A DNA stretch of 64,000 bases from Leptonemataceae bacterium. Its GTDB lineage: Bacteria > Spirochaetota > Leptospiria > Leptospirales > Leptonemataceae. Shown one piece after another: positions 39,005 through 64,000 of this stretch. The translations under genes and the position numbers were made by a program. The stretch is taken from NCBI GenBank assembly GCA_965227295.1, contig OZ245742.1, positions 224,001 through 288,000 of the forward strand, read 5' to 3'. Under the pieces are notes generated by a model. That model did no database searches, was not told the origin of the DNA, and was given only the letters and a program-made list of their open reading frames with translations. Each line of letters opens with the position of its first letter. Position 1 is the stretch's first letter.

Positions 39005-39410
39005 TCGCAAAAGGCGCGAATCCGTATCCGCCCCGCGGATAGAGCGGGGCTCCGGGGTGCGAATTCGCTTCCTGGATCTTTACGACGAAGACGCCGTTCG
39101 GTGCGCCGTACCACATTCCCCGGCATGACCTCCGTTCGTCAGTTGGAACCAGCCGTCCCCATACAAGGCTTAATGTACACTCACCGCCACTTACACCACG
39201 ATCCGGGGCGTCCGCGAACAACCGATACATTTCTGGTAGTTCAAGAGCTGCAGTTCGCTACCGCCGTCGTGAGAAACATGGAGTAAGTTGCAGTATAGTG
39301 AAGGGGATTTTTTGGCTACAGCTTTGCGGGAGTTGTGGATTTTCGTTTTGTTAAGAATGCTGCGTTCGACCCGGGACGCTGCTTATGCGACTCAGCTACC
39401 GCAACGTGAC

Positions 39411-52345: not shown

Positions 52346-53851
52346 ATGTCTCGCCTGGCCGAGATTTTTTCCCCCGCGAATACGGCCGGACTACTGCCGA
52401 ATAATCCCTGGCTCGCTCTCTTCCAGAAGAACGACTGGCCGGAGTATCTCCAGCTCATCGCCCTGCTCTACGACGCCGTCGAAACGGACGGCCCGCGCGT
52501 GGAGTACGACCTCGCCCGGATCATCATCGAACACTTCTACGAAGATCGCGATCCTGACAGCCGGGTACAAAAAGCGAGTCAGTTCTATCGCATGGCCGTC
52601 GACGAGTTGGAGATCTTACGCGAGATCTACAGCAACACCGGCGAGCGATTGGTAATCGCCACGCGCAACGGAAAAAATCTTTTGCGCATCTGCGAAGAAC
52701 TCATCCGTAGCCGCCGCCGTTTTTCCGGCACGGGAGCGGACGTCATGCTCGGCGCACTCAACGAACTTCTGTTGTATCGTCATCCGATTCCGTTACAGGA
52801 TGCGATTGCGCATCACCAACAGCGCATCGCGGAGTACGAACAAGACATGGACCGCATGCGCCGGGGCGGCGTACAGGCCAGTGAGTTTCTCGGCGACGGT
52901 TCTTCGCCGGAAGAACTCTTCGTGCAGGCCGAAGAAGCGGCCCGGCAGATTCTCCTCGCCGGTGAAGACATCAAAGACGCCATCGAAACGGCGCGCCGGG
53001 ATCTGGCGCAGAGCTACCGCAATCCGGAGTTCTCGGCGGGCCAGGCCATCCAGCACGTAGCTGACTTTCATGTTAAGTTACGGAGTAGCCCCGAGTATGC
53101 GAGCTTTCGGCGCGCAAGCGATCTGCTGTCGTTCATCGACGGATTGGGCGGACGCTTTCGCGAAAAGGACGTCTCGCATATCTTTTTTCTACTGGGATCG
53201 CGCGGCACCGTGCCGAAAGATCTTCTGCACAGTAGCGATCTTCGCCGTTTCTCGGATCGCTTCGCCGGTCTGGAACGAGAAATCGCCGCGAAGATCAGCG
53301 AACAGTTGAACATCCTGCGTGTTCAGGTGCATTACGTTCTGGAAAACACGGGCGGTCGCGCGCAGGCGGACCTGAGCGAATGGATGGCGCTGATGAGCAA
53401 CGCCGGCACCGCGGCCCTCGACTTTCTCGGCCGGGAAAGACTGGAGTACAATGTCGGCCTCGACGTCGACATTGGGCCGGTGCAACCGAATCCGCTGGAA
53501 GTCGAGTTCGACGTGACAGCGTATCGCCCGGAGCGCAACGAACTGAACGAGGACGAATGGCGACGGATGCACGAGCTCCTGCTCTCCACGGAAGAAGCGA
53601 CCATCGGTCGGGTCGTCGAGCGCATGCGGGACTATCTTTCGCGCAACGGATCGGTTCGGCTTTCGGAATATCCGATCGAGTCGGGCATACCGGAAATTTA
53701 CATTCTGTCGAACATTGAATCCTACGCGGACGATATCCGTTCCGAGTTTCTAAACTACGCGGACATCGCCTTTCATTCGAAGGCCGGCGCCGAATTCATT
53801 GTTCAGGACCTCGCCGACCGCCGGTTTTCGTTCATGGAGCAGGCATCGTGA
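52346..53851 (+). CDS. jetA: Wadjet JetA (DUF3375-like kleisin)
   Basis: 501-aa helical protein, first of a 4-gene overlapping operon containing an SMC ATPase and a TOPRIM nuclease. Confidence 0.75.
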   Translation: MSRLAEIFSPANTAGLLPNNPWLALFQKNDWPEYLQLIALLYDAVETDGPRVEYDLARIIIEHFYEDRDPDSRVQKASQFYRMAVDELEILREIYSNTGERLVIATRNGKNLLRICEELIRSRRRFSGTGADVMLGALNELLLYRHPIPLQDAIAHHQQRIAEYEQDMDRMRRGGVQASEFLGDGSSPEELFVQAEEAARQILLAGEDIKDAIETARRDLAQSYRNPEFSAGQAIQHVADFHVKLRSSPEYASFRRASDLLSFIDGLGGRFREKDVSHIFFLLGSRGTVPKDLLHSSDLRRFSDRFAGLEREIAAKISEQLNILRVQVHYVLENTGGRAQADLSEWMALMSNAGTAALDFLGRERLEYNVGLDVDIGPVQPNPLEVEFDVTAYRPERNELNEDEWRRMHELLLSTEEATIGRVVERMRDYLSRNGSVRLSEYPIESGIPEIYILSNIESYADDIRSEFLNYADIAFHSKAGAEFIVQDLADRRFSFMEQAS

Positions 53852-54534
53852 CGACGAACGCATCTGAGTTTGAAAAACCTGGCTCCGCCGTCGAGCCCGA
53901 CCTGGCGTTGGCAGGCATCATTCGCGGCTGTCTCTCGCGACGCTTCATCCTGCGATCCGAGCGCCAGAAACTCTTTCTCTCCATTGTCGAACAACGGGGC
54001 GACCTCAGCGATTACTTCAGCCGGATGGGTGCCCGGCTCGTCGTCGACGAAGGCCTGGGCATCGCCTATCTCCAGTCCCTGCCGGAACACGACGAGGACA
54101 TCGACTACCGTCTGGGCCGAACGAAACGCCTGAGCGCGCTCGAAACTCTGTTGCTCTTCGTGCTGCGCTGGTATCGTAACAACTACTTCTTCGGCGACGG
54201 CGAGGCGGACATGGAGATGCCCGTCATCGACGTCGAACGCATCCGCGAAATGCTCGAAGAGTACAAGCCGGCGAAAGCCGAGCGCGCCTTCGAACAAAAA
54301 CTGAAACGTGCCATCGATAATTTCAGCGATCTAAAAATCTTACTGAAGACCGATCATCCCGAACGCTTCGCCGTCTCCCCCGTCACCGACGTCCTGCTGC
54401 CCGCCGACGGCATTGAACGCTCGCTGAACCGGGCCCGTGATTACTTCGCGTCCACGACGCAAGACGAAGCAGATGCACCGTCTTCGGACGAAGACAATGC
54501 GAATCCCGACGCGAACGCGGATTTGGACTCTTAA
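53848..54534 (+). CDS. jetB: Wadjet JetB (DUF4194-like KITE subunit)
   Basis: DYFSRMGARLVVDE..GIAYL and RLSALETLLLFVLR motifs; GTGA overlap with jetA. Confidence 0.82.
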   Translation: MTTNASEFEKPGSAVEPDLALAGIIRGCLSRRFILRSERQKLFLSIVEQRGDLSDYFSRMGARLVVDEGLGIAYLQSLPEHDEDIDYRLGRTKRLSALETLLLFVLRWYRNNYFFGDGEADMEMPVIDVERIREMLEEYKPAKAERAFEQKLKRAIDNFSDLKILLKTDHPERFAVSPVTDVLLPADGIERSLNRARDYFASTTQDEADAPSSDEDNANPDANADLDS

Positions 54535-54547
54535 CAGGAACCCCGGT

Positions 54548-57500
54548 TTGAACGCGAACAACAACGGAAAGACCGAGAAGAACGGGCATCACGGAAATCG
54601 CCCGGTCAACATAAGCCTCGGTTACACGTTGCAGCGCGTCGAAACTCTCGACTGGGGCAACTTACGCGGCTGGCAGCCCATTGAACTGAGTCTCGCCGAC
54701 GGCGGCTCGCGCCTGTCGTTGATCGCGGGCATCAACGGCTCCGGTAAGTCCACCATCATCGACGGCATCATGACGGTGCTGCTCCCGTTCAAGCAGCTCC
54801 TGCAACTCGGCGTGACCCACGACTTCGAAGAAGGCCGGTCCGGTTCTCGGAACGTCGATGACTACCTGCTCGGCAAACACGCGGCGACGGGCGGTGATGC
54901 CGTCGAAGACGATCAGGTCTACAGCCGCGACACCGGCGTTTCGTGCATTCTCCTGGTCTTTCGGCACAACGAAAATCCCGAACGCTGGCTGAGCCTGGCG
55001 CGCGTGTGGTGGTACGCCGGTCGCAAGATCCGCGAAGATTCAGCGAATATCATCGCCCGGGAAAATCTGACGATCGGTGCGAGCGACGCGCGCACGCCGG
55101 AAGACGAGGGCGGCGGCCTCTTTCAAACGCCGCGACTCAGTCTGTGCGACGATGCCGGTCACATGTTCGCGAGTCTCGCCGCCATGAAGCGCGGCCTGCC
55201 GCAAAAGAGCGACCGCATTCAGGTCTTCGACCGCGTGAACCAGTACTTCGAAACGCTGCGCAAGTATCTCGGCGGCGTCAGCAAAGAAGATCTGCGCATG
55301 CTCAATCGCGCCTTCTACATGAAGTCCATCGGCCACATCGACCGCTTCATTCGCGAGCACATGCTCACCGAGATGGAGCACGAATCGATTCACTCTTTGA
55401 TTCAACATGTCAAGCAGGCCGCGGAGATTTCCCGGGACATCGCCAGAAGCGAAGAGCGCGTCGTAGCACTCAAGGTGATCACCGGCAACCTGCGCACGTT
55501 TCGCGAACACCAGATTCGCATCGAAGCATGCCGGCTGGAAATTCGACTCCTGCGAATCTACGAAAAATGGGCGGAACGCCGGGACATCGAACTCGAACTG
55601 ACGAAACTGGGGCACGGCATCGAGACGGCGGAGGCGCAGCTCCCCGGACTTCGGCAACGCGTGGATGATGCCGAACGGGAGTCCAACAAACTCCAGCAGG
55701 AGCTGAACGCCAGCGAAGGCATCCTGCGCCTGGAACGCCTCAAGGACGATCGCAAGAATCTCGAGAAAGACATGAATCTCATGCGCCGGGAGCGCGAGAC
55801 CGTGGAAGAACGCTGCGTTCGTCTCGGACTGGAGCGGCCGAAATCCTTCGAGGGGCTGCCCGCGTTCCGGGAGGCCGTGAAAGAAGTTCGTAGCGGCCTG
55901 GTAAACGAGGCCGCGGAATTTGCGGCACATCAAAAACAGGTGCACATCCGCGAAGGCGAGCTACGCACGGAGACGGAACGCGTACGCGGTGAGATCGAGT
56001 TTCTCTCGAAGAACCGCACCGTCATCGATGAGCAGACCTACCGGATAAAAACGCGCTGCTTCGAGGAACTCGGCTTAAGTAATACGGATTTGATGTTTGT
56101 GGGCGAGCTCATTCGCGTGAAAGCGGACGCCCATCAGTACCGCCGCGCGGTGGAATCGGTGCTCGCCCCCATCTCTCGCAACCTGCTCTGCGCTCCGCAT
56201 TGCCTGGACGATGTCACCGAATGGTTGAATCGCACGCAGCTCCGCCGCACCGTCGTAATGAAGCGCATCCGATCGGAAGAACTCGAGGCCCGGCCGGCGG
56301 AGAAGGCCGCAAAGGATTCCATCCTGAATCGCATCGAGCTGCGACCGCGCGAAGACCATCCGTTCTACGACTATCTCTGGAACTGGTTGCGCGCGGAGTT
56401 TTATCATCGCGTCGTCGGCGTCGAAGAACTCCGCAGCAGCGTCGACCGCGCGGTTACCGTCGAAGGCCTGGTAAAATCGGACCGCCGGACGCAACGAAAG
56501 TACAAAGAAAAGCTGGAGTACAGTTTAGGCTGGGACAGCCGGGAACGCCAGGCAGAACTCGTCCGGAATTTGAACGCGCTCCAACGAGAAGACGAGCAGA
56601 TTCGCGCGGAAAACGCCGCCCTTGAAGAACGTCGGCGGGACCTGTCCGCCCGGGAACGCGATGCGGACGATTTGCTCAAAGAAGCCCACGAATACCTCGG
56701 TCTCCCGGAGCACGAAGAACGCTATGTCCGGCTGGAACAGGAAATCCTCGTTCTGGAACGAGACGACACGGATTTGAACGCCCTGCGGGAACTTGCCGAA
56801 GAAAGCAAACGCCGCTACGGCATGCGACAACGCGAATTGGTCCAGCTCGAACAGAACCTCGAACACGATCAGCGGAACCGGGAGAAGCTGACAAACGAAC
56901 GCGCGGATCTGGAATCGATCATCAATGATCGCCTGGGAGTTCCCCCGGAAGGAGATCGGCGGCCGCTCCGCGAGGCGGTCCCGGACTGGGAGGAGCGTCT
57001 TAAGTCTATTCAGCAAATTCTTAGTGTAAAGAATCTACAGGTTCACGAATACGAACGCGAGATTGAATCGGAGATCAACAGCCGCACGCTGAGTCGCAAC
57101 AATACGCACGTCCGGGATCGCTTGAAAAACTACCAGGAGGATCATCACGATCCGAATTTGCCGGCAGACTTTCATCCCGAAACCGTCACCGTGGACGGCA
57201 TCGATCGTTTCCTGGAAGCGTGGAACGAAGCCCTGGAACGCCTGGAATCGACCGGACTGCCGGCCGCTCGCGAAAAATGGACGCGCTTTTACAATGACAC
57301 GCTCATCGACGCCATTAAGGCCGCCGTCAACGAAATCCGCACGCAGCAACGCGAAGTCGAAACGAACATCGCCAGCATCAACTCGGTGCTGCGCGGGGTG
57401 GACTTCGAACGTCTGCCGGAGGGCAATCGTTATCTTAAGATCGAGGCGCAACGCAGCAACGATACCCGCGTCCGTCGTTTTCTGAAAGACGTCAAAGAAG

Positions 57501-58132
57501 TCGAGGGTGTTCTCGCCGGAGATATTCGCGGTCTCGGAGCGTCCGAAAACGCAAAACAAACGATGGCGGTGCTGGAACCGTTCGTCGAAAGCCTGACGGA
57601 AGATCCGAATTATCAGGCCTACGTCGTCGACGTGCGCAATCATCGCACGTTCCAGGTGCACTCGCTGCGCCGCAATCCCGACGGCGAAGACGTAGTCGTC
57701 GAACGCTTTGCGGGCGCGCGGACGGATTCCAAGTCGTCGGCGCAGACCGCGCAGCTGGCGTACACTCTGCTCGCGTCTTCGCTGGCGTATCGTTTTCATT
57801 TTCATACGCCGGCGCGCGGGCAGGACAGCTTGCGGCTGATCATCCTCGACGAGTTCACGAGCAAGTTCGATAACGAGAAACCCCACGACGTCATTCGCCT
57901 GCTGACCGACATGGGCTTCCAGGCCCTGCTGGTAAGTCCGCTGGACAAGGCCGATCTCCTGGCCGAGCACATCAATCGGCTGGTCTTCGTGTTCAAGGTT
58001 TCGGCCGAGGAATCCAAGGCGTATTCGCATCCGATTCGTTCACGCAAAGACTACGATCGCCTCATGGAAAATGCCAGGCAAATCATGCGTGCCGGGCAAC
58101 CGGCTGGAACCGAGCGAAATGCGGGAGCGTAA
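54548..58132 (+). CDS. jetC: Wadjet JetC SMC-like ATPase
   Basis: Walker A GINGSGKST, long coiled coils, hinge (FVGELI), signature-like KSSAQ, LAYTLLASSLAY, Walker B LIILDE. Start uncertain (TTG 54548 after AGGA; frame open from 54437). Confidence 0.9.
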   Translation: MNANNNGKTEKNGHHGNRPVNISLGYTLQRVETLDWGNLRGWQPIELSLADGGSRLSLIAGINGSGKSTIIDGIMTVLLPFKQLLQLGVTHDFEEGRSGSRNVDDYLLGKHAATGGDAVEDDQVYSRDTGVSCILLVFRHNENPERWLSLARVWWYAGRKIREDSANIIARENLTIGASDARTPEDEGGGLFQTPRLSLCDDAGHMFASLAAMKRGLPQKSDRIQVFDRVNQYFETLRKYLGGVSKEDLRMLNRAFYMKSIGHIDRFIREHMLTEMEHESIHSLIQHVKQAAEISRDIARSEERVVALKVITGNLRTFREHQIRIEACRLEIRLLRIYEKWAERRDIELELTKLGHGIETAEAQLPGLRQRVDDAERESNKLQQELNASEGILRLERLKDDRKNLEKDMNLMRRERETVEERCVRLGLERPKSFEGLPAFREAVKEVRSGLVNEAAEFAAHQKQVHIREGELRTETERVRGEIEFLSKNRTVIDEQTYRIKTRCFEELGLSNTDLMFVGELIRVKADAHQYRRAVESVLAPISRNLLCAPHCLDDVTEWLNRTQLRRTVVMKRIRSEELEARPAEKAAKDSILNRIELRPREDHPFYDYLWNWLRAEFYHRVVGVEELRSSVDRAVTVEGLVKSDRRTQRKYKEKLEYSLGWDSRERQAELVRNLNALQREDEQIRAENAALEERRRDLSARERDADDLLKEAHEYLGLPEHEERYVRLEQEILVLERDDTDLNALRELAEESKRRYGMRQRELVQLEQNLEHDQRNREKLTNERADLESIINDRLGVPPEGDRRPLREAVPDWEERLKSIQQILSVKNLQVHEYEREIESEINSRTLSRNNTHVRDRLKNYQEDHHDPNLPADFHPETVTVDGIDRFLEAWNEALERLESTGLPAAREKWTRFYNDTLIDAIKAAVNEIRTQQREVETNIASINSVLRGVDFERLPEGNRYLKIEAQRSNDTRVRRFLKDVKEVEGVLAGDIRGLGASENAKQTMAVLEPFVESLTEDPNYQAYVVDVRNHRTFQVHSLRRNPDGEDVVVERFAGARTDSKSSAQTAQLAYTLLASSLAYRFHFHTPARGQDSLRLIILDEFTSKFDNEKPHDVIRLLTDMGFQALLVSPLDKADLLAEHINRLVFVFKVSAEESKAYSHPIRSRKDYDRLMENARQIMRAGQPAGTERNAGA

Positions 58133-59293
58133 ATGATAGATGAGATCGAGAAACTTTTCGATCTTGAATCTTATCTCGATCGAGCTGAAAAAGACTTCTT
58201 GTTAAACGGCCGGGAAGAATTTCGGTTCTCCTTGCGTTTTACGCGGCGCGTGAAAGCCGGTCACGATCGCTTCGAAAAAGAAATTCGCGCCTTTGATTTT
58301 CTGCGCTTAGACTACGGTCGCACCGTTCGCAGCGGTCATGTGCGCGTCGGACGTATCAGCGAGATTGCCTTCGACATCGAAGACCTGCTGCGCCTGCGGC
58401 CGGAGTTACGTGTTGTGCGGCGGGCGTTTCTACAGGCATTCGATACGTCGTCGGCTTCCGCGGTGCGCACCTACGTGCAAAACAATTACGCGTTATGCCG
58501 GCGCAAGTTCGAAGTACTGCCGGACTGCGTTGATGTGCTCGAGTACCTGTTCGCGCATCGCGAATCCGTTCGCGGCCGGTACTGCCGGCAAATCCCGCAC
58601 GGAAAATCTACCAAGCTGATTGGACGGGAAGCGCTACTCCTCGGACTCTACGAAGCCGTACGACGCGAGCGCAGCGAAAATTCCGACGGCAATCAGCAGG
58701 CACTGAAAATTCGGTGGAGCGATTTCGTTGCCGACTTTGATCTGAGAACGAAGCCGGCGGCCTTTCTCTTCTGGGCATCCCGGCTTCGCATCGACGGACA
58801 TGCCATCGAAAATTTCGACGCGCTTCTGAGTGACGAAAATATTGATCGATTAACCTTTCCGGAAGTAAAGTTTGCGCTGATCGTAGAAAACGAAGAGACG
58901 TTCTACAGCGTTCGAGACGCCCTGCGAGATTTTTCGGCTCCGGCAGTGTTGATTGCCGGCGGCGGCGCGGCCGTCGGCGGCGCCGGTTTTCTCGCCGGGG
59001 TGCTGCAAGCCCGCCCGCATTATTACTGGGGCGACATGGACGCCTCCGGCTACGAAATCTTTCACGGCGCACGAAGCGTGTTTCCCGCATTGGAACCGCT
59101 GCTGATGAATCATGAAAGCCTGCGTCGCTACGAAAGTGTCACGCAGCAAGTCGCTCCAGTGAACCCCAGAACGGCGCGGGTTCCGCTCCTGGATTCCGAG
59201 TACCGCCGGGTGTGCCGGGACGGGTTGCGCATCGAGCAAGAGCACATTGCCATCGAAGACCTTCTTCAAATCCTCGAAGAATCGCTGCGCTGA
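58133..59293 (+). CDS. jetD: Wadjet JetD TOPRIM-fold nuclease (DUF2220-like)
   Basis: LIVENEETF, YYWGDMD.SG, LLM, RIEQE motifs. Confidence 0.88.
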   Translation: MIDEIEKLFDLESYLDRAEKDFLLNGREEFRFSLRFTRRVKAGHDRFEKEIRAFDFLRLDYGRTVRSGHVRVGRISEIAFDIEDLLRLRPELRVVRRAFLQAFDTSSASAVRTYVQNNYALCRRKFEVLPDCVDVLEYLFAHRESVRGRYCRQIPHGKSTKLIGREALLLGLYEAVRRERSENSDGNQQALKIRWSDFVADFDLRTKPAAFLFWASRLRIDGHAIENFDALLSDENIDRLTFPEVKFALIVENEETFYSVRDALRDFSAPAVLIAGGGAAVGGAGFLAGVLQARPHYYWGDMDASGYEIFHGARSVFPALEPLLMNHESLRRYESVTQQVAPVNPRTARVPLLDSEYRRVCRDGLRIEQEHIAIEDLLQILEESLR

Positions 59294-59322: not shown

Positions 59323-59916
59323 TCAATCCACCTCGAACATCTCCGCCCCCTCCGGCCCCACGTTCCACGCCGTCGCACGCTCCTCTTCTAACAGTAATCG
59401 CGCAGAAGTTACGACGCACGCCGCCGTCGTCGTAATGACCGGCAGAAAACCGTCGCCCTCGCACGTCGCCTGGCCGGGCACGTCCTCGGAGTCCACGACG
59501 AACTCACTGTCCGGCCGCACCGCGGCGAAGCTGCCGTCCGCGGCGAGACCGGCGTGAATGCAGGCGATGCCGTGTGCACGCACGAACTCCTGCACGAGCA
59601 ACCGCGATTCCGCGTTATCGAAACATTCGATGACCAGGTCCCGGCCGCCGAGCAACGTCTCCACATTCTCCGGCGCAAGCCGCACGGAATAATCCTGCAA
59701 CTTGCGGCCGAAGAAATTCTGGAACTGCATCTTGAGCGCGACGGCCTTGTTCTTGCCGACCATGGGCTTCACGAACCACTGCGACACCAGGTTCTTCGTC
59801 TCCACACGATCGAAGTCCACGACGGAAAGATCCGCGGCGAGCCCGCGCGCCGCGTAAACGACGTGCGAACCCAGGGCCCCGCCCCCGCAGACAATGATGT
59901 TCTTCGCAGCGCTCAT
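59323..59916 (-). CDS. Minimal ThiF/E1-like adenylyltransferase
   Basis: CGGGALGS, VDFDRVE.KNL, VGKNK, ECFDN..SR; candidate catalytic Cys in ATCEG; no CxxC zinc pairs. Confidence 0.9.
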   Translation of the reverse strand: MSAAKNIIVCGGGALGSHVVYAARGLAADLSVVDFDRVETKNLVSQWFVKPMVGKNKAVALKMQFQNFFGRKLQDYSVRLAPENVETLLGGRDLVIECFDNAESRLLVQEFVRAHGIACIHAGLAADGSFAAVRPDSEFVVDSEDVPGQATCEGDGFLPVITTTAACVVTSARLLLEEERATAWNVGPEGAEMFEVD

Positions 59917-59919
59917 TGC

Positions 59920-60174
59920 TTAACCTGCGCCGAACGGAACTTTAGGCCGAATCACGTAACGCGTTTCCCGACCGCGGCCCGCGCGAAAGCGGTCGATCAC
60001 GAAATGATCGAACGCACCCGACGGCACATTCCCGGCGCGGATGCCCGGAACTTCACCGGCACGCACGGCTTCTTCGGCAATGCGGCGGATCGTTTCATCG
60101 TGCACGTTGTCTTCCAGTTCCACCGGGTAGTTGCCCGACTGGCCGTTGTATGTAATGTTCAGAATCACTTTCAT
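59920..60174 (-). CDS. Small ubiquitin-like (beta-grasp) protein candidate
   Basis: 84 aa; beta-beta-alpha-beta-beta pattern by eye; C-terminus RPKVPFGAG; lies between JAB and E1; GAGG SD before ATG 60174. Confidence 0.7.
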   Translation of the reverse strand: MKVILNITYNGQSGNYPVELEDNVHDETIRRIAEEAVRAGEVPGIRAGNVPSGAFDHFVIDRFRAGRGRETRYVIRPKVPFGAG

Positions 60175-60196
60175 CTTACATGTACCTCGAAAGAGT

Positions 60197-60550
60197 TCAC
60201 GAGCGCCCGAACGAAAGTTCGCGCAGCGTCTCAAGCCACCACGGCGCATCTTTGCGCACACGATTGCGACCCCGGCAACCCCACCGGCTCAAATAGCCGC
60301 TTCGCGTAACCACAGACCAATGAAACTTAAGCCCCGTGGCCGCCTCCACCGCTTCCATCGTCGTGCGGTCCTCCTCCGAAAACCGCAGCATCTCACCGGG
60401 ATGCGTATGCACAATCTCGGCAATGTCCGCGCGGTGTTCCCAGATCGTTTCCCAGCGCTCCCGGGCGTCCGGAATCGCCGCTTCGCTGCCGTAGTAGATC
60501 CTTAAGATCGTACCGGCTTTTGTTAAAATAAAACACACCTCGCGCATCAC
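60197..60550 (-). CDS. JAB/JAMM (MPN+) metallopeptidase
   Basis: Exact H-x-H-x7-S-x2-D motif (HTHPGEMLRFSEED) and an N-terminal Glu (REVC). Confidence 0.85.
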   Translation of the reverse strand: MMREVCFILTKAGTILRIYYGSEAAIPDARERWETIWEHRADIAEIVHTHPGEMLRFSEEDRTTMEAVEAATGLKFHWSVVTRSGYLSRWGCRGRNRVRKDAPWWLETLRELSFGRS

Positions 60551-60556
60551 ACAAAC

Positions 60557-61471
60557 TCAGCCGCGGCGATACACATGCAGTTGATGCGTGGCGATGGCCT
60601 CGCGCACCGCCGACGGCAGACTCGACAGATTCAACTCCTGGTCCGCCCCGTCGAGACAAATCCCCGCGTCGAGAATCTGCAACGTCGCGCGATCCACGAC
60701 GCACTCGTACTTCTCGCCGCCGAAGCGGTACTTCACGATCGCCTGGTCGCCGCCCTGGCTGCGCCAGTCCACCAGCTCCGCGCCGGTGTGCGCGAGGGCC
60801 GCAATGACACGATCATCGAACGTCTCGTCGCGGCGACGACGATCGCGCACGAGTTCTTCCAGCTCACGTTCCGCGACGGCGCGACGCTCGGCCTCGCGAC
60901 GCAGGTACGCTTCTTCTTCGGCACGCAACCGGGCGAGCTCCGCCGCCTGGTGTTGCAGTTCGCGATCGAAGACCGCGGCCGCGTACGCGCTCGCGAGCGA
61001 AGGCACCACGCCTTTTACGTGATCGATGCCGCGGCCGTCGCGATGTACGCTGCCTTCTTCAAAGGCGTCGCGCACCTGACCTTCGGCTTCGCTCTCGAAA
61101 CCGATGCCGGTAAAAATGTAGTGCCCGTCGTACCACACCCGCGCGGTGATCGGGGCGAAACGTTCCGGCGGTTCGTTCGCATCGATGCCGAAGATGTTTT
61201 TCTGAAACGTATCCCCGACGAAGCGGCCGTTATAAAAGTGACCGCTGACTTCTTTGAGATCCGCATGATCTTCCAGCGCCGTTCGCGCCGTGTCTTCGTC
61301 GAGGGCCTCCGCGACTTCCACGAAGCGGCCCTGTTCGCGGAAACGATACCAGCCCGGCGCCGGTCGTTCTTTCAGGCGATACGCGCGCTCCGCGTCACAC
61401 ACCCGGTCGCCGCCGAAGTACGGCAACACCAGTTCGCGATCGCCGCCCTGTAGAAATGCGCGATAGTCCAT
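60557..61471 (-). CDS. Hypothetical protein: beta-rich N-terminus, coiled coil, C-terminal domain with E2-like GICL motif
   Basis: Start ATG 61471 (MDYRAF), 304 aa; QILDAGICLDG near the C-terminus; first gene of the JAB-Ubl-E1 run. Confidence 0.7.
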   Translation of the reverse strand: MDYRAFLQGGDRELVLPYFGGDRVCDAERAYRLKERPAPGWYRFREQGRFVEVAEALDEDTARTALEDHADLKEVSGHFYNGRFVGDTFQKNIFGIDANEPPERFAPITARVWYDGHYIFTGIGFESEAEGQVRDAFEEGSVHRDGRGIDHVKGVVPSLASAYAAAVFDRELQHQAAELARLRAEEEAYLRREAERRAVAERELEELVRDRRRRDETFDDRVIAALAHTGAELVDWRSQGGDQAIVKYRFGGEKYECVVDRATLQILDAGICLDGADQELNLSSLPSAVREAIATHQLHVYRRG

Positions 61472-61635
61472 AAACGATCTCTGTAACAGAGGCACGCGAG
61501 TGCGAAACAGTTTTTTCCTTCGCAGGAAAATTCCGGATTCGAACCGGAACGGTGGACAACCGTTTGCTCCCATAGCAAATCTCAAATGCTTGTTACTGTA
61601 ATTCCGATTGCATGCCTCTATTGCAGAGATCGTTT
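61472..61635 (-). ncRNA. Structured tRNA-mimic RNA, copy A (Y-RNA/Yrl-like candidate)
   Basis: About 26-bp closing stem; core 61491-61616 with D-like arm, T arm TCCGG-TTCGAAT-CCGGA and a GCGA tetraloop hairpin; 5' and 3' blocks shared with copy B. Confidence 0.75.
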
Positions 61636-61642
61636 CGGTGGA

Positions 61643-61802
61643 GAACAGCGCCGGGGATGGGCACGCGAGTGCGATGCAGTTTCGTTTGGTTACGTGACCG
61701 GAATCGAACCGGCTCCTCAAGATTAGAAGTCTTGTGCTCTACCTGTGAGCTACACATGCTTGTAACTGCGCTCCGATTGCATGCCCATTCCCGGGGCTGT
61801 TC
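61643..61802 (-). ncRNA. Structured tRNA-mimic RNA, copy B, containing a tRNA-Arg(UCU)-like cloverleaf
   Basis: About 24-bp closing stem; cloverleaf at 61687-61759: GCTC-ACAGGTA-GAGC, CAAGA-CTTCTAA-TCTTG, GCCGG-TTCGATT-CCGGT, 5-bp acceptor stem, then CCA. Confidence 0.8.
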
Positions 61803-62081
61803 GTCGTTTTCCCTTCTCATCTATTTTGCGCGCGTTCTTTGCAAGATCGGAGCGGTTTTTTCTGCGCCGTCCTTGAAAAACAAGAACGCCCACCCGCCTG
61901 CCGCGCCCGGTTCATCGGCCCGTTTTCGCACCTCATCAACGGTTCGCCGAAACCTCAACCAGCCTCCTATCTCGCAACTCGCGGACACACCGTCCGCATT
62001 CCTCGCAACTGATCATTCCTCCCGTCCGCCCTCGCGGACATTCCTTTTAACATGTTAAAATAACAGGACCGCAGGCGGCCC

Positions 62082-62125
62082 AAAAACGAAAAAACCCTCC
62101 GATGCGCGTGCATTCCGGAGGGTTT
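62082..62125 (-). terminator. Intrinsic terminator, probably conditional (attenuator)
   Basis: Minus strand AAACCCTCCG...CGGAGGGTTT followed by TTTCGTTTTT. Confidence 0.8.
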
Positions 62126-62159
62126 CGTGGAATCGAAACGGGTCTTTCGCCGCATCAAC

Positions 62160-62261
62160 TTACACCACAGACCCTCCCGGCATCTTGCCGCAGTCCTCAT
62201 TCGTTTTCCGATGTAAACTTACAGGTCGCATCATCGTGCCTTTCGAGGTTATGAGACGCAT
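62160..62261 (-). promoter_or_regulatory. Putative leader peptide ORF of the attenuator
   Basis: 33 aa (MRLITSKGTMMRPVSLHRKTNEDCGKMPGGSVV*); alternative starts at 62234/62231 after AAAGG; its last codons contain GGAGGGT, complementary to the terminator 5' arm. Confidence 0.5.
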
Positions 62262-62291
62262 GGTTCCGTAAAATTGTTTCAAAAAATTTTT

Positions 62292-62404
62292 ACTCCGAGG
62301 CCCGAGGTACCGAGAAAAAAGAAAAAGGAGGGTGATCATAACCCGCTTGCATGCAGACTACAATCACCCTCCCCAAAAAAACTCGGACCCTCGGTCCTCG
62401 GAGT
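62292..62404. repeat. Intergenic element with terminal inverted repeats (family A)
   Basis: ACTCCGAGGCCCGAGG ... CTCGGTCCTCGGAGT. Confidence 0.8.
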
Positions 62405-62417
62405 CCAACTTCTTAAC

Positions 62418-64000
62418 TCAGTACGGCTTCGTCAGCAACTGAGTCCGCAGCACTTCCTCGACGAGAGACAGCTTGCCGCTTTTCAGCGGTTGCGCCTTCA
62501 GGATCGCCTGAAGACTGCGCTGCACCTGGTAGACGTCCGAAAACTGATCGACGTCCACTTCCGTGTACGGCAACTTCATCTCCACGGCCGCCTTGCGCAC
62601 CGTTTCGCCGCGCGACCACGCCACGTTGACAATGTGCGCGAACGCCGAGACATCGAAGCCGCAATCACGAAACGCCTTCGCGAACTCCGCGCCGGACTCA
62701 CCGGCCTCGTCACCGACGGCGAAGACGATCAGGTCCGCGCCGTCCGGAATCGTAACACCGGACTGCTTCAGCGCACGCACGCCGGAGCCGTAGACCGTGC
62801 CGCCGCCCGCTTCGATGCGCGAGAGCATGTGCTCCACGCCGCGCCGCGACGGATGACGCAAACGCAACACGGTGCCCACGGTATCAAAGGCGACGACGTG
62901 CAGTTTCTCCGGCTCGAAGCCCTGCAAAATTCCCGCGAGCGCCTCTTTCGATTTCTCGATGGCGCCGGACATCGAAGCCGACGTGTCGATCAAGAACACG
63001 ATGTGGATGTCCGCGTCTTCCGTCGCTGCGTCCACAGCCTTCTTGACGGCGCCGTCCGCCGCATCTTCCAACGCTGCGACGTTCTCGCGGTTACGCACGT
63101 TCTTTGCGATGTTGCGCGCCCGCTGATCGTCCAGATTCTTAAGTGCATCCTGCCAGCGCTTACGAATCTCCTCGTGCTTCAACAACCCCAGGTCCTCCAG
63201 CGTCGGCGTGAGAATCGCGAGATCCCGATCCGACACACCGCCGGCTTCCAGTACAGCGACGAAGATCGCCGGACTCAGGCCGATCTCCGGCGGCAGCATG
63301 CCCGTGACCTGCTTGTAACCGAGCTGTTTGTCCACGATCAGCGCACAGATTTCCGCTTCGCTCTTGTTTTCGAAAGAAAGGCTCTCGCGATTCAACTCGC
63401 CCAGGCCCACGCTACGGTGACCCTGTTCGTGCTGCTTCTGCGGCCAGTTCAAAATCTCGAAAAAGCGCTGCGACTCCGGCTTGTATCCGACCATGCGCGC
63501 CAGGTTCTTCACCGTCTTCGCGTAACCGGCCTTCTTCAGGCCCTCGAGCAACTGAATGTTCATCTCGCGGAAACGCAGCCAGTCTTCCACGGCCTTGTAA
63601 TAACGGCCCGTAAACGGCTTGCGTTTCTGCACATTGCCGAAGCCCAGTTCCTTGTTGATCGCGACAACGCCAGGCAACGACAATACGTCGCCGATACGCG
63701 CAATCATCTTCGGCGAAAGCATCTTCGCCGAGCCGCGCTCATAGGTCTTCAGCATGGCCTCGCCGACTTCTCGAAAGTCGTCGTCGTGAAACAGCAGTTC
63801 GCGTTTGCCGTTGTTCTCGTCGAACACCGGTTCGCCGCTGCGGTTCTGCACGAGCATGAACGCCGCGCACACGACCTTAATATCCCGCCACGTGGTCTTA
63901 GTCGCCACGTAGGACGCGAGCCGGGCCGCGAGTTCCTCGTTCACCTTGTAAATGTCCGCGATCGTGCCGTAGACCTGCACGATGGCGTGTTCGTTCGGCC
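62418..64000 (-). CDS. vWA-domain protein with large helical N-terminal region (TROVE/Ro60-like architecture); 5' end outside the window
   Basis: MIDAS DTSASMS ... GGT ... VGDE in the C-terminal ~195 aa; basic helical N-terminal region; frame open to the window edge. Confidence 0.8.
   Translation of the reverse strand, partial: PNEHAIVQVYGTIADIYKVNEELAARLASYVATKTTWRDIKVVCAAFMLVQNRSGEPVFDENNGKRELLFHDDDFREVGEAMLKTYERGSAKMLSPKMIARIGDVLSLPGVVAINKELGFGNVQKRKPFTGRYYKAVEDWLRFREMNIQLLEGLKKAGYAKTVKNLARMVGYKPESQRFFEILNWPQKQHEQGHRSVGLGELNRESLSFENKSEAEICALIVDKQLGYKQVTGMLPPEIGLSPAIFVAVLEAGGVSDRDLAILTPTLEDLGLLKHEEIRKRWQDALKNLDDQRARNIAKNVRNRENVAALEDAADGAVKKAVDAATEDADIHIVFLIDTSASMSGAIEKSKEALAGILQGFEPEKLHVVAFDTVGTVLRLRHPSRRGVEHMLSRIEAGGGTVYGSGVRALKQSGVTIPDGADLIVFAVGDEAGESGAEFAKAFRDCGFDVSAFAHIVNVAWSRGETVRKAAVEMKLPYTEVDVDQFSDVYQVQRSLQAILKAQPLKSGKLSLVEEVLRTQLLTKPY

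Follow-up and report, generated by a model that had tools for sequence, protein, structure and literature searches.

What brings a Ro60-like protein, a row of tRNA-shaped small RNAs and a putative gene set for ubiquitin-like (Ubl) conjugation together in one operon? The question is raised by a locus in a 64,000-nt stretch of DNA from a Leptonemataceae bacterium (contig OZ245742.1, G000:C1:224001–288000), which we call the window and whose positions serve as coordinates. On the minus strand, between positions 59323 and 64000, the locus encodes in the order of transcription a vWA protein, a 946-nt intergenic stretch, a protein with a GICL motif (GICL protein), a JAB peptidase, a Ubl protein and an E1. 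It bears on the purpose of bacterial Ro60/Y RNA particles and on the reason for the tRNA mimicry of their RNAs. We find that it belongs to a rare, horizontally spread module of six parts: a Ro60-like vWA protein, one to five RNAs, GICL, JAB, Ubl and a minimal E1. The reading we propose, to which we give an even chance of being correct, is a Ro/Y-type ribonucleoprotein (RNP) with tRNA-shaped bait RNAs that is coupled to Ubl activation and conjugation and acts in a tRNA-centered conflict. The features of the locus are as follows.

62418–64000, continuing to the window-equivalent position 64217, minus strand: Ro60-like vWA protein, 599 aa (full open reading frame, ORF, taken from the genome)
62327–62397, minus strand: two terminator-like hairpins with U-runs, at 62385–62397 and 62327–62372 (consensus scan)
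62080–62225, minus strand: structured segment, putatively a leader or a small RNA (−53.8 kcal/mol, fold z −2.52)
61651–61804, minus strand: RNA1 (covariance model R1, 105.6 bits)
61482–61636, minus strand: RNA2 (covariance model R1, 78.3 bits; fold z −2.91)
60557–61471, minus strand: GICL protein, 304 aa (ORF; start sites of homologues)
60197–60550, minus strand: JAB/JAMM metallopeptidase, 117 aa (Prok-JAB, E 5.3e-5)
59920–60174, minus strand: ubiquitin-like protein (Ubl), 84 aa (alignment of 27 sequences)
59323–59916, minus strand: minimal ThiF/MoeB-type E1, 197 aa (Pfam ThiF, E 1.1e-20)

A rare module of linked parts

The four genes from GICL to E1 are separated by 6, 22 and 3 nt. An earlier note on this DNA had described these spacings, and with them a minus-strand run of vWA protein, leader/terminator, two RNAs, GICL protein, JAB, 84-aa protein and E1; the spacings are correct and all of the parts were found. 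The whole order recurs in dozens of unrelated contigs, and the arrangement is therefore beyond chance. A pattern scan of one genome per species gave 13 loci (Verrucomicrobiota, 'delta proteobacterium', Terriglobales, Pyrinomonadaceae), and a metagenome scan gave 78 further ones. Labels such as L003 or L014 denote related loci collected for comparison.

For the locus counts, the proteins of the window were compared by tblastn with 86 close loci. The vWA gene is present in 17 of the 18 loci with more than 2800 nt of upstream sequence (exception L020). At least one RNA copy occurs in all 45 loci with at least 200 nt upstream, and these carry three phylum-level labels. Where more than 1800 nt are available downstream (30 loci), Ubl and E1 are each present 29 times, with L029 as the sole exception, and JAB 26 times, the exceptions being L008, L009, L075 and L029. 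The earlier note had proposed to survey the neighborhoods for joint occurrence, and the survey bore it out: the vWA gene and the RNAs accompany the Ubl cassette almost without exception. Within the phylum of the window, the vWA protein was found in 1 of 401 genomes searched, namely the window's own.

The number of RNAs between the vWA and GICL genes varies. Three copies are most frequent among the 31 complete gaps (12 loci), followed by two (8), four (4), one (3) and five (2). The remaining two loci, both deltaproteobacterial, have no RNA in the gap, which measures 25–32 nt there; instead a single RNA lies upstream of the vWA gene. An acidobacterial variant was observed in Pyrinomonadaceae (L014:2636-9560, L015, L090). 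It comprises a 66-aa Ubl ending in ..AVYG, an RNA, a GICL-like protein, an E1 and a vWA relative of 482 aa (hhalign probability 99.7%); JAB is absent, and an HSP90-like ATPase and a 392-aa protein are added after E1. In L029 (4363-8189) no further part of the operon follows the GICL gene; a reverse-transcriptase-like ORF is found downstream, possibly as the result of an insertion.

The tandem RNAs and their anticodons

The core of RNA1 (61691–61759) scores as a tRNA, with 53 bits in Rfam and an Arg-tct call by ARAGORN. Its tRNA-like module has the native order of D arm, anticodon arm (loop CUUCUAA) and T arm, and the single-sequence fold of RNA1 consists of a basal stem and three arms. RNA1 is the third tRNA-Arg(tct)-like gene of a genome that holds two other tRNA-Arg(tct) genes. 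We considered a working tRNA-Arg and dropped this assignment. RNA1 has no CCA, and its acceptor stem is defective, with mismatches in the Rfam alignment. RNA2 is built on the same scaffold. Its T arm is followed by an extra hairpin, its D region is degenerate, and where the anticodon arm would stand it has a hairpin with a 5-nt loop. By comparison with the last copies of other loci it is a degenerate member of this 'last copy' type.

When RNA1 and RNA2 were aligned with the tRNA-like genes that adjoin the vWA gene in eight related loci, the flanks proved to be conserved and able to pair with one another. In the RNAalifold consensus the D, anticodon and T arms are enclosed by two helices, one of them the basal stem, and by a 2-bp element. 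This consensus comprises 28 pairs, 20 of which keep their pairing through changes on both sides. In the named structure 96.4% of the cells are paired, compared to 30–49% in slid controls. None of 500 shuffles reached the observed paired share, the counts of both-side changes or the covariation score, while the count of further pair types was reached in 43 of 500. The RNAs form a new family, in which a covarying shared basal stem carries a tRNA-like module, with more than 100 copies. The description of the RNAs as tRNA mimics in the earlier note holds in this form, the tRNA-like modules being mounted on a Y-RNA-like covarying stem.

Searching the window and 92 loci with the covariance model R1 gave 172 matches. 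Some of them are ordinary tRNAs, aligned to the tRNA-like core of the model; those over the full length lie in tandem upstream of the GICL gene. The copies can be read as four kinds on one scaffold. One has the native order (D, anticodon, T). Another is circularly permuted, with T arm, capped acceptor-like hairpin, D arm and anticodon arm in this order. The third, always the copy adjoining the GICL gene, keeps the native order and adds a hairpin behind the T arm, and the fourth is a short form without tRNA parts. Across the copies the 5' strand of the acceptor region is fixed and the 3' strand varies without compensation. The combination of a 7-pair acceptor stem, a CCA end (encoded or addable) and a body fitting the anticodon, by which a decoding tRNA is recognized, is not present in these RNAs. 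They do resemble Y RNAs in lying next to a Ro-type gene, in pairing their 5' and 3' ends into a stem and in carrying a tRNA-like domain. The Rfam model of YrlA (RF02553) scored the permuted copies of L018 at 31.8 and 19.6 bits, below its gathering score of 69. It found no match at E ≤ 10 in the window, which does not contain the permuted kind.

Within the native-order first copies (n = 38) the anticodon stem is nearly constant, and the triplet takes 16 values. For a comparison of the columns we used the 26 distinct sequences, leaving out one row of another kind. The mean pairwise difference amounts to 0.585 at the triplet, as against 0.148 for the remaining 55 core columns and 0.30 for the remaining four loop positions; when the core was read in windows of three adjacent columns, not one of the 53 was as variable as the triplet. 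Such variability fits either diversifying selection or a lack of constraint at exactly these three bases. In decoding tRNAs the body matches the anticodon, and because one nearly constant body carries 16 anticodons here, the RNAs do not resemble decoding tRNAs.

The protein components

A search of 1.84 billion representatives yielded 245 relatives of the vWA protein, mostly 590–650 aa in length. The Pfam matches of the protein itself are VWA_CoxE and VWA_2. A profile of 42 relatives, run against the PDB, reached Ro60 chains via the vWA part only (E 1.7e-4), and two TROVE chains appeared at E 0.3. The structure was predicted with AlphaFold on the basis of these 42 relatives, with a predicted local distance difference test score (pLDDT) of 91.2. 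In a Foldseek search of the PDB with this model the top ten matches were all Ro60/TROVE structures (487–617 columns, E 1.4e-7 to 2.6e-6, TM 0.33–0.54), including Xenopus and human Ro60 and a 'Trove domain' entry; Ro60 of the Thermus phage phiLo and Deinococcus Rsr followed at lower ranks. VIA-align superposed the model on Ro60/TROVE chains with Z-scores of 13.1–13.4 over 419–434 residues, and these were the only chains that covered both halves of the model. In the prediction a TROVE-fold ring of helical repeats at the N-terminus precedes the vWA domain. The MIDAS motif (DxSxS...T...D) is complete, and its residues Asp411, Ser413, Ser415, Thr474 and Asp503 are invariant or nearly so in the 42 relatives. 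We call the protein Ro60-like by predicted fold and domain order, not by sequence-level family membership, because the fold searches match Ro60/TROVE while the TROVE part is not recognized by sequence.

The Ubl, JAB and E1 proteins carry the motifs expected of a cassette of this type, in support of the anatomy given in the earlier note. The E1 consists of an adenylation domain only. Invariant in 30 sequences are the Gly-rich loop, Asp34, Asp36, Lys57, Asp100, Asn101, Arg105 and Cys152 (in GQATCEG). The E1-E2 models of PADLOC match the E1 of the window with their E1 half only; in NCBIfam it is matched best by the models for ThiF/MoeB, none of which comes near its cut-off. The JAB protein scores 23.5 bits with Prok-JAB, just under the cut-off of 25 bits, and its motif HSHPx7SxxD is kept in the homologues. 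No gene with a match to an E2 was found in the operon by Pfam, NCBIfam and PADLOC scans.

The Ubl of the window ends in ..VPFGAG, that is, Gly82 of the stretch ..RPKVPFG is followed by Ala-Gly. In 27 aligned sequences ..RPKVPFG is common to all and Gly82 is invariant; 0–11 unrelated residues follow. All loci that have Ubl and no JAB (L008, L009, L075 and the Pyrinomonadaceae variant) encode a Ubl that ends exactly at the glycine, and the fourth close locus without JAB, L029, has no Ubl gene. We propose that JAB trims the Ubl tail because the Ubl of the JAB-less loci ends at this residue. In some loci with JAB the Ubl likewise ends at the glycine. The Ubl had no match in Pfam, NCBIfam, PADLOC or PHROGs, and a PDB profile search gave nothing below E 0.3; in the ESM Atlas it matched unnamed clusters only (score 0.92), some of them viral.

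For the GICL protein 148 homologues were found, every one of which is named 'hypothetical protein' only. A longer 387-aa ORF was rejected as the gene, because it overruns the RNAs and the homologues start at MDY. The predicted model (pLDDT 85.5) comprises two barrels resembling the oligonucleotide/oligosaccharide-binding (OB) fold, a helix of about 70 residues and a small β-domain. The tail (residues 271–304) is the most conserved stretch of the protein, yet it was modeled at a pLDDT under 50. It contains Cys272 (in DAGICL), the only residue of the GICL motif kept in all variants. A Cys-His-Asp triad was considered and dropped, since the distant variant has neither His228 nor Cys257.

Searches of Pfam, NCBIfam, PADLOC and PHROGs gave no match to the GICL protein, its profile found nothing in the PDB below E 0.3, and the ESM Atlas returned no usable match. 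Foldseek with the model gave nothing at E ≤ 0.001, neither in the PDB, where only weak OB/S1-type rows appeared, nor in the viral library BFVD. In VIA-align the best Z-score was 5.6, the double OB fold of Mpa reached 5.4 and 4.7, and the C-terminal domain matched NTF2/VirB8-like structures at 4.5–5, all within the background. The prediction of a complex of E1, Ubl(1–82) and GICL(221–304) had a score of 0.00 and carries no weight either way. An E2 role of this protein is conjectural: no ubiquitin-conjugating (UBC) fold was seen in the model with Foldseek and VIA-align, but the Cys-bearing tail belongs to the part modeled at low confidence.

Surroundings, relatives and possible role

Outside the window's own genome the steady neighbor of the module is tRNA. 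ARAGORN found 150 tRNA genes in 91 loci, all of them on the strand of the operon; CCA is encoded in 122 and a GUGC T-loop is present in 86. Unusual tRNAs among them, with an encoded CCA, a GGUGCRA T-loop (G for the normal U at position 55) and D-loops without the usual GG, form co-directional arrays that flank the operon at L003:3500-5112, L008:3073-5835, L009:2833-5443, in L065 and in others. None of the 86 tRNAs of the window's genome is of this GUGC/CCA kind. That genome has two long tRNA arrays in opposite orientation (G000:C1:4547528-4559530), about 4.3 Mb from the locus, with ordinary T-loops.

Phage records were searched by tblastn with the vWA protein, whose alignment is too varied to define a pattern. 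One record matched, that of the 197-kb jumbo phage Virus Rctr197k (KX853510.1, L094), which encodes all five proteins between two tRNA arrays. Its vWA relative (37% identity over 98% of the query) directly follows an array of 31 tRNAs. The stop codon of this gene is overlapped by the GICL relative (L094:8935-9882); the JAB, Ubl and ThiF relatives and then 11 more tRNAs come further on. The T-loops of the phage tRNAs are ordinary. In the record the GICL homologue is unannotated, with the coding sequence Rctr197k_234 annotated across it on the opposite strand, and the vWA relative is a misc_feature only. A pattern scan for the GICL family found no relative in IMG/VR and no match in plasmids.

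The closest known counterparts are the Salmonella operon rsr-yrlB-yrlA-rtcB-rtcA and Deinococcus Rsr/Yrn1, bacterial Ro60 proteins with Y RNAs; the part of PMC4201824 available to us describes the permuted order for YrlA and the native order for Yrn1. The module resembles these systems, as far as they are described there, in a ring-type TROVE and vWA protein followed by at least two tandem tRNA-like small RNAs and then by effector genes. Both RNA layouts recur as well, the native one as in Yrn1 and the permuted one of T arm, acceptor hairpin and D arm as in YrlA, each with a basal stem of the 5' and 3' ends. The module differs from Rsr in that its vWA protein is missed by the Pfam TROVE model, so that the Ro/TROVE-like label of the earlier note stands for the predicted fold over the whole length but not for the family match. 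Unlike YrlA as described in that part, its RNAs stay at 31.8 bits and the motif GNCGAAN0-1G was not seen in them, and unlike Y RNAs they retain a full anticodon arm with a variable triplet. Where the known operon has the RtcB ligase and the RtcA cyclase as effectors, the module has GICL, JAB, Ubl and E1. In other words, the module swaps the RNA-repair genes of the known Rsr operon for a Ubl tagging kit, multiplies the tRNA mimics and varies their anticodons.

With BilABCD, CBASS Cap2/Cap3 and Bub the module has in common the adenylation domain of an E1, the C-terminal Gly of its putative Ubl, a JAB and a tightly packed operon, going by the available parts of PMC11601596, PMC10557695 and PMC10097602. 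In contrast to these systems its E1 is only 197 aa long, with neither a fused E2 nor extra domains, its Ubl set is joined to an RNP and RNAs, and no UBC-fold E2 was found in it. As a Cys carrier only a protein whose predicted fold is unrelated comes into question, and the module thereby bears on whether a non-UBC protein can serve in this function. PRTRC (ParB-related, ThiF-related cassette; NCBIfam TIGR03736) likewise has a ThiF-family E1 in a small mobile cassette and matches weakly (E 4.5e-9), but the E1 of the window scores 36 against a cut-off of 144.75, and no ParB or other PRTRC matches were found. Supernumerary tRNA arrays are also long and co-directional in the accessible accounts, as are the arrays of the related loci and the phage, some of which lie beside HNH endonuclease genes. 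Those accounts, unlike the present loci, name no Ro-like protein, Y-like RNA or Ubl genes as companions, and an encoded CCA together with a GUGC T-loop sets the present arrays apart. We regard the module as a possible companion of mobile tRNA arrays and of the tRNA sets of jumbo phages.

That no characterized system joins Ro-like and Ubl parts, as the earlier note had it, agrees with a full-text search, which found no paper describing the combination of Ro-like protein, RNAs and Ubl set; the search covered main texts, and Burroughs & Aravind 2016 may mention this association. No TROVE-domain text was found in PMC7159879. An Asgard virus preprint reports, in the portion available, a Ro60 gene and ThiF genes in one virus and draws no link between them. 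The accessible part of a jumbo-phage survey treats ROT/TROVE proteins with a tRNA-like partner as RNA-repair platforms.

Based on these results we propose the following mechanism. The Ro-like protein would bind the shared basal stem of the RNAs, by analogy with Ro60 and Y RNAs. The tRNA-shaped modules, with their constant body and hypervariable triplet, would act as bait or adaptor for factors that recognize tRNA anticodon loops. The OB-like barrels of GICL may contact RNA, and its long helix may pair two copies of the protein. Trimming of the variable Ubl tail by JAB would expose Gly82, which would then be adenylated by E1, and the Ubl could pass via Cys152 of E1 and/or Cys272 of GICL to a target; Cys272 would serve as carrier of the Ubl or as its acceptor. 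The role of the module would be protection, surveillance or counter-defense of the tRNA supply. Its association with mobile tRNA arrays and its copy in a jumbo phage lead us to favor a tRNA-centered conflict over a host-only anti-phage system. In a more specific version, possible but unlikely in our judgment, Ro-held tRNA mimics, whose anticodon loops diversify under selection, are a programmable bait that detects or traps anticodon nucleases or other tRNA-binding effectors and is answered by Ubl tagging. If true, it would connect surveillance by RNA mimics with Ubl signaling in bacteria and phages for the first time. In a bolder form, which is conceivable, E1 would load the Ubl onto the RNA itself, as an aminoacylation-like ester, and not onto protein. 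The sensing of tRNA damage proposed in the earlier note is conjecture.

Several observations weigh against the proposed bait RNP. The Pfam TROVE model does not match the vWA protein at E ≤ 10, the fold match to Ro60 is moderate (TM 0.41–0.54, root-mean-square deviation 5.6–6.1 Å), and part of its score comes from the vWA domain, with vWA-only chains reaching Z about 15 over about 165 residues. The second RNA of the window is degenerate, no tRNA array lies near the window's own copy, and the variability of the anticodons could reflect relaxed constraint rather than selection. The 84-aa protein is a putative Ubl, with a conserved terminal Gly and variable tails. The fold searches showed no UBC/E2 fold in the GICL model, in which the Cys-bearing tail has a pLDDT under 50, and the conserved Cys257 and His228 of GICL are missing in the acidobacterial variant. 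What the computations show directly are the components and how strictly they are linked, together with the structure of the RNAs and the pattern of Ubl tails; binding of RNA, transcription and conjugation are inferred.

The earlier note had taken the adjacent Wadjet genes as a hint of a defense role. In the window JetABCD (52346–59293, plus strand) does adjoin the operon, ending 29 nt before the stop codon of E1 on the other strand; JetB (DUF4194/MksE) and JetD (JetD_C) were assigned by family match, JetA and JetC by position and size. A dedicated host anti-phage system, in which the Ro-like RNP senses infection through tRNA cleavage or a phage factor and Ubl tags phage proteins as in Bil, would make this adjacency a defense island. 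It would also suit the rare and patchy occurrence of the module (13 loci in the species-genome scan, 1 of 401 genomes of the phylum) and the defensive action of E1, JAB and Ubl sets in Bil and CBASS described in the available parts of PMC10557695 and PMC10097602. However, when the flanking proteins of 21 related loci and three genes of the L014 variant were scanned with PADLOC (E ≤ 1e-5), only 8 of 82 flanking proteins gave a match, mostly by generic domains, and no Wadjet gene was among the matches. A jumbo phage encodes all five proteins, and the constant neighbor is the tRNA array and not a defense gene. The argument from Wadjet is weak, and we regard host defense as unlikely. Quality control or maturation of acquired tRNA arrays, with the Ro ring handling misfolded tRNAs, the Y-like RNAs as gates and the Ubl cassette only regulating turnover of the RNP proteins, would account for the unusual arrays that flank the operon on the same strand and for the position of the phage vWA gene directly behind 31 tRNAs. 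It agrees with the binding of misfolded RNAs by Ro60 and the gating of Ro60 by Y RNAs (PDB entries 1yvp, 2i91 and 9nep; PMC4201824, as far as available). It leaves the hypervariable triplets unexplained, though, and the full set of Ubl, E1 and JAB is kept even where no array is near, as in the window; we consider it quite unlikely.

The bare adenylation domain of the E1, with its sub-threshold ThiF/MoeB matches, could alternatively belong to a sulfur carrier system, in which E1 thiocarboxylates the Ubl, as with ThiS, MoaD, TtuB and CysO, for thiolation of the RNAs or of array tRNAs, and JAB trims as Mec+ does. Sets of JAB, Ubl and E1 serve sulfur transfer in CysO/Mec+ and QbsE/QbsD, and TtuB/TtuC would fit the tRNA context. 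Sulfur carriers end in Gly-Gly, though, and since the Ubl ends in Phe-Gly this counts against the assignment. A Gly-Gly end accompanied by a sulfurtransferase or acceptor enzyme in the operon was not found; neither the operon nor its recurrent neighbors showed a rhodanese domain, a PP-loop ATPase or another sulfur-acceptor enzyme. A sulfur carrier is for us a very unlikely solution. A chance neighborhood, finally, which would make the RNAs normal or decaying members of a tRNA island unconnected with the protein genes, could draw on RNA1 passing the Rfam and ARAGORN tests for tRNA and on the frequency of tRNA arrays in related loci. But the copies share a covarying basal stem foreign to tRNA, have neither CCA nor a 7-bp acceptor stem, include circularly permuted forms and occupy the same place in 45 of 45 loci under three phylum-level labels, which makes chance hardly credible.

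The remaining features are minor. The vWA gene is cut by the end of the window and complete in the genome at 62418–64217, 217 nt beyond it; on its upstream side follows an acyl-CoA dehydrogenase-like gene on the opposite strand. The two terminator-like hairpins sit, by reading of the sequence, directly after the vWA stop codon. This position is their support, because the consensus scan alone is weak: it found 8 sites in the region where 5.6 were expected. The segment 62080–62225, located between the vWA gene and RNA1, contains a GC-rich hairpin with a U-run at its end (near 62085–62130); it had no Rfam match below E 4 and no match to the covariance model R1. At 39290–39383 (plus strand) ARAGORN called a 94-nt 'tRNA-Arg(gcg)' that is absent from the Rfam calls at gathering score and is probably a false call.

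In the related loci an SPFH/Band 7 protein (6 loci) and a familyless protein of 218–220 aa (5 loci) lie on either side of the operon (L005:571-2131, L008:10447-11247, L013:4034-5131, L026, L031, L088). The deltaproteobacterial loci L011 (10624-11883) and L012 (10360-11625) have a radical-SAM gene after E1 with weak matches to viperin models. In L011 a sigma-54 activator (338-2317) is located 3.5 kb upstream, which recalls the control of the rsr operon by RtcR.

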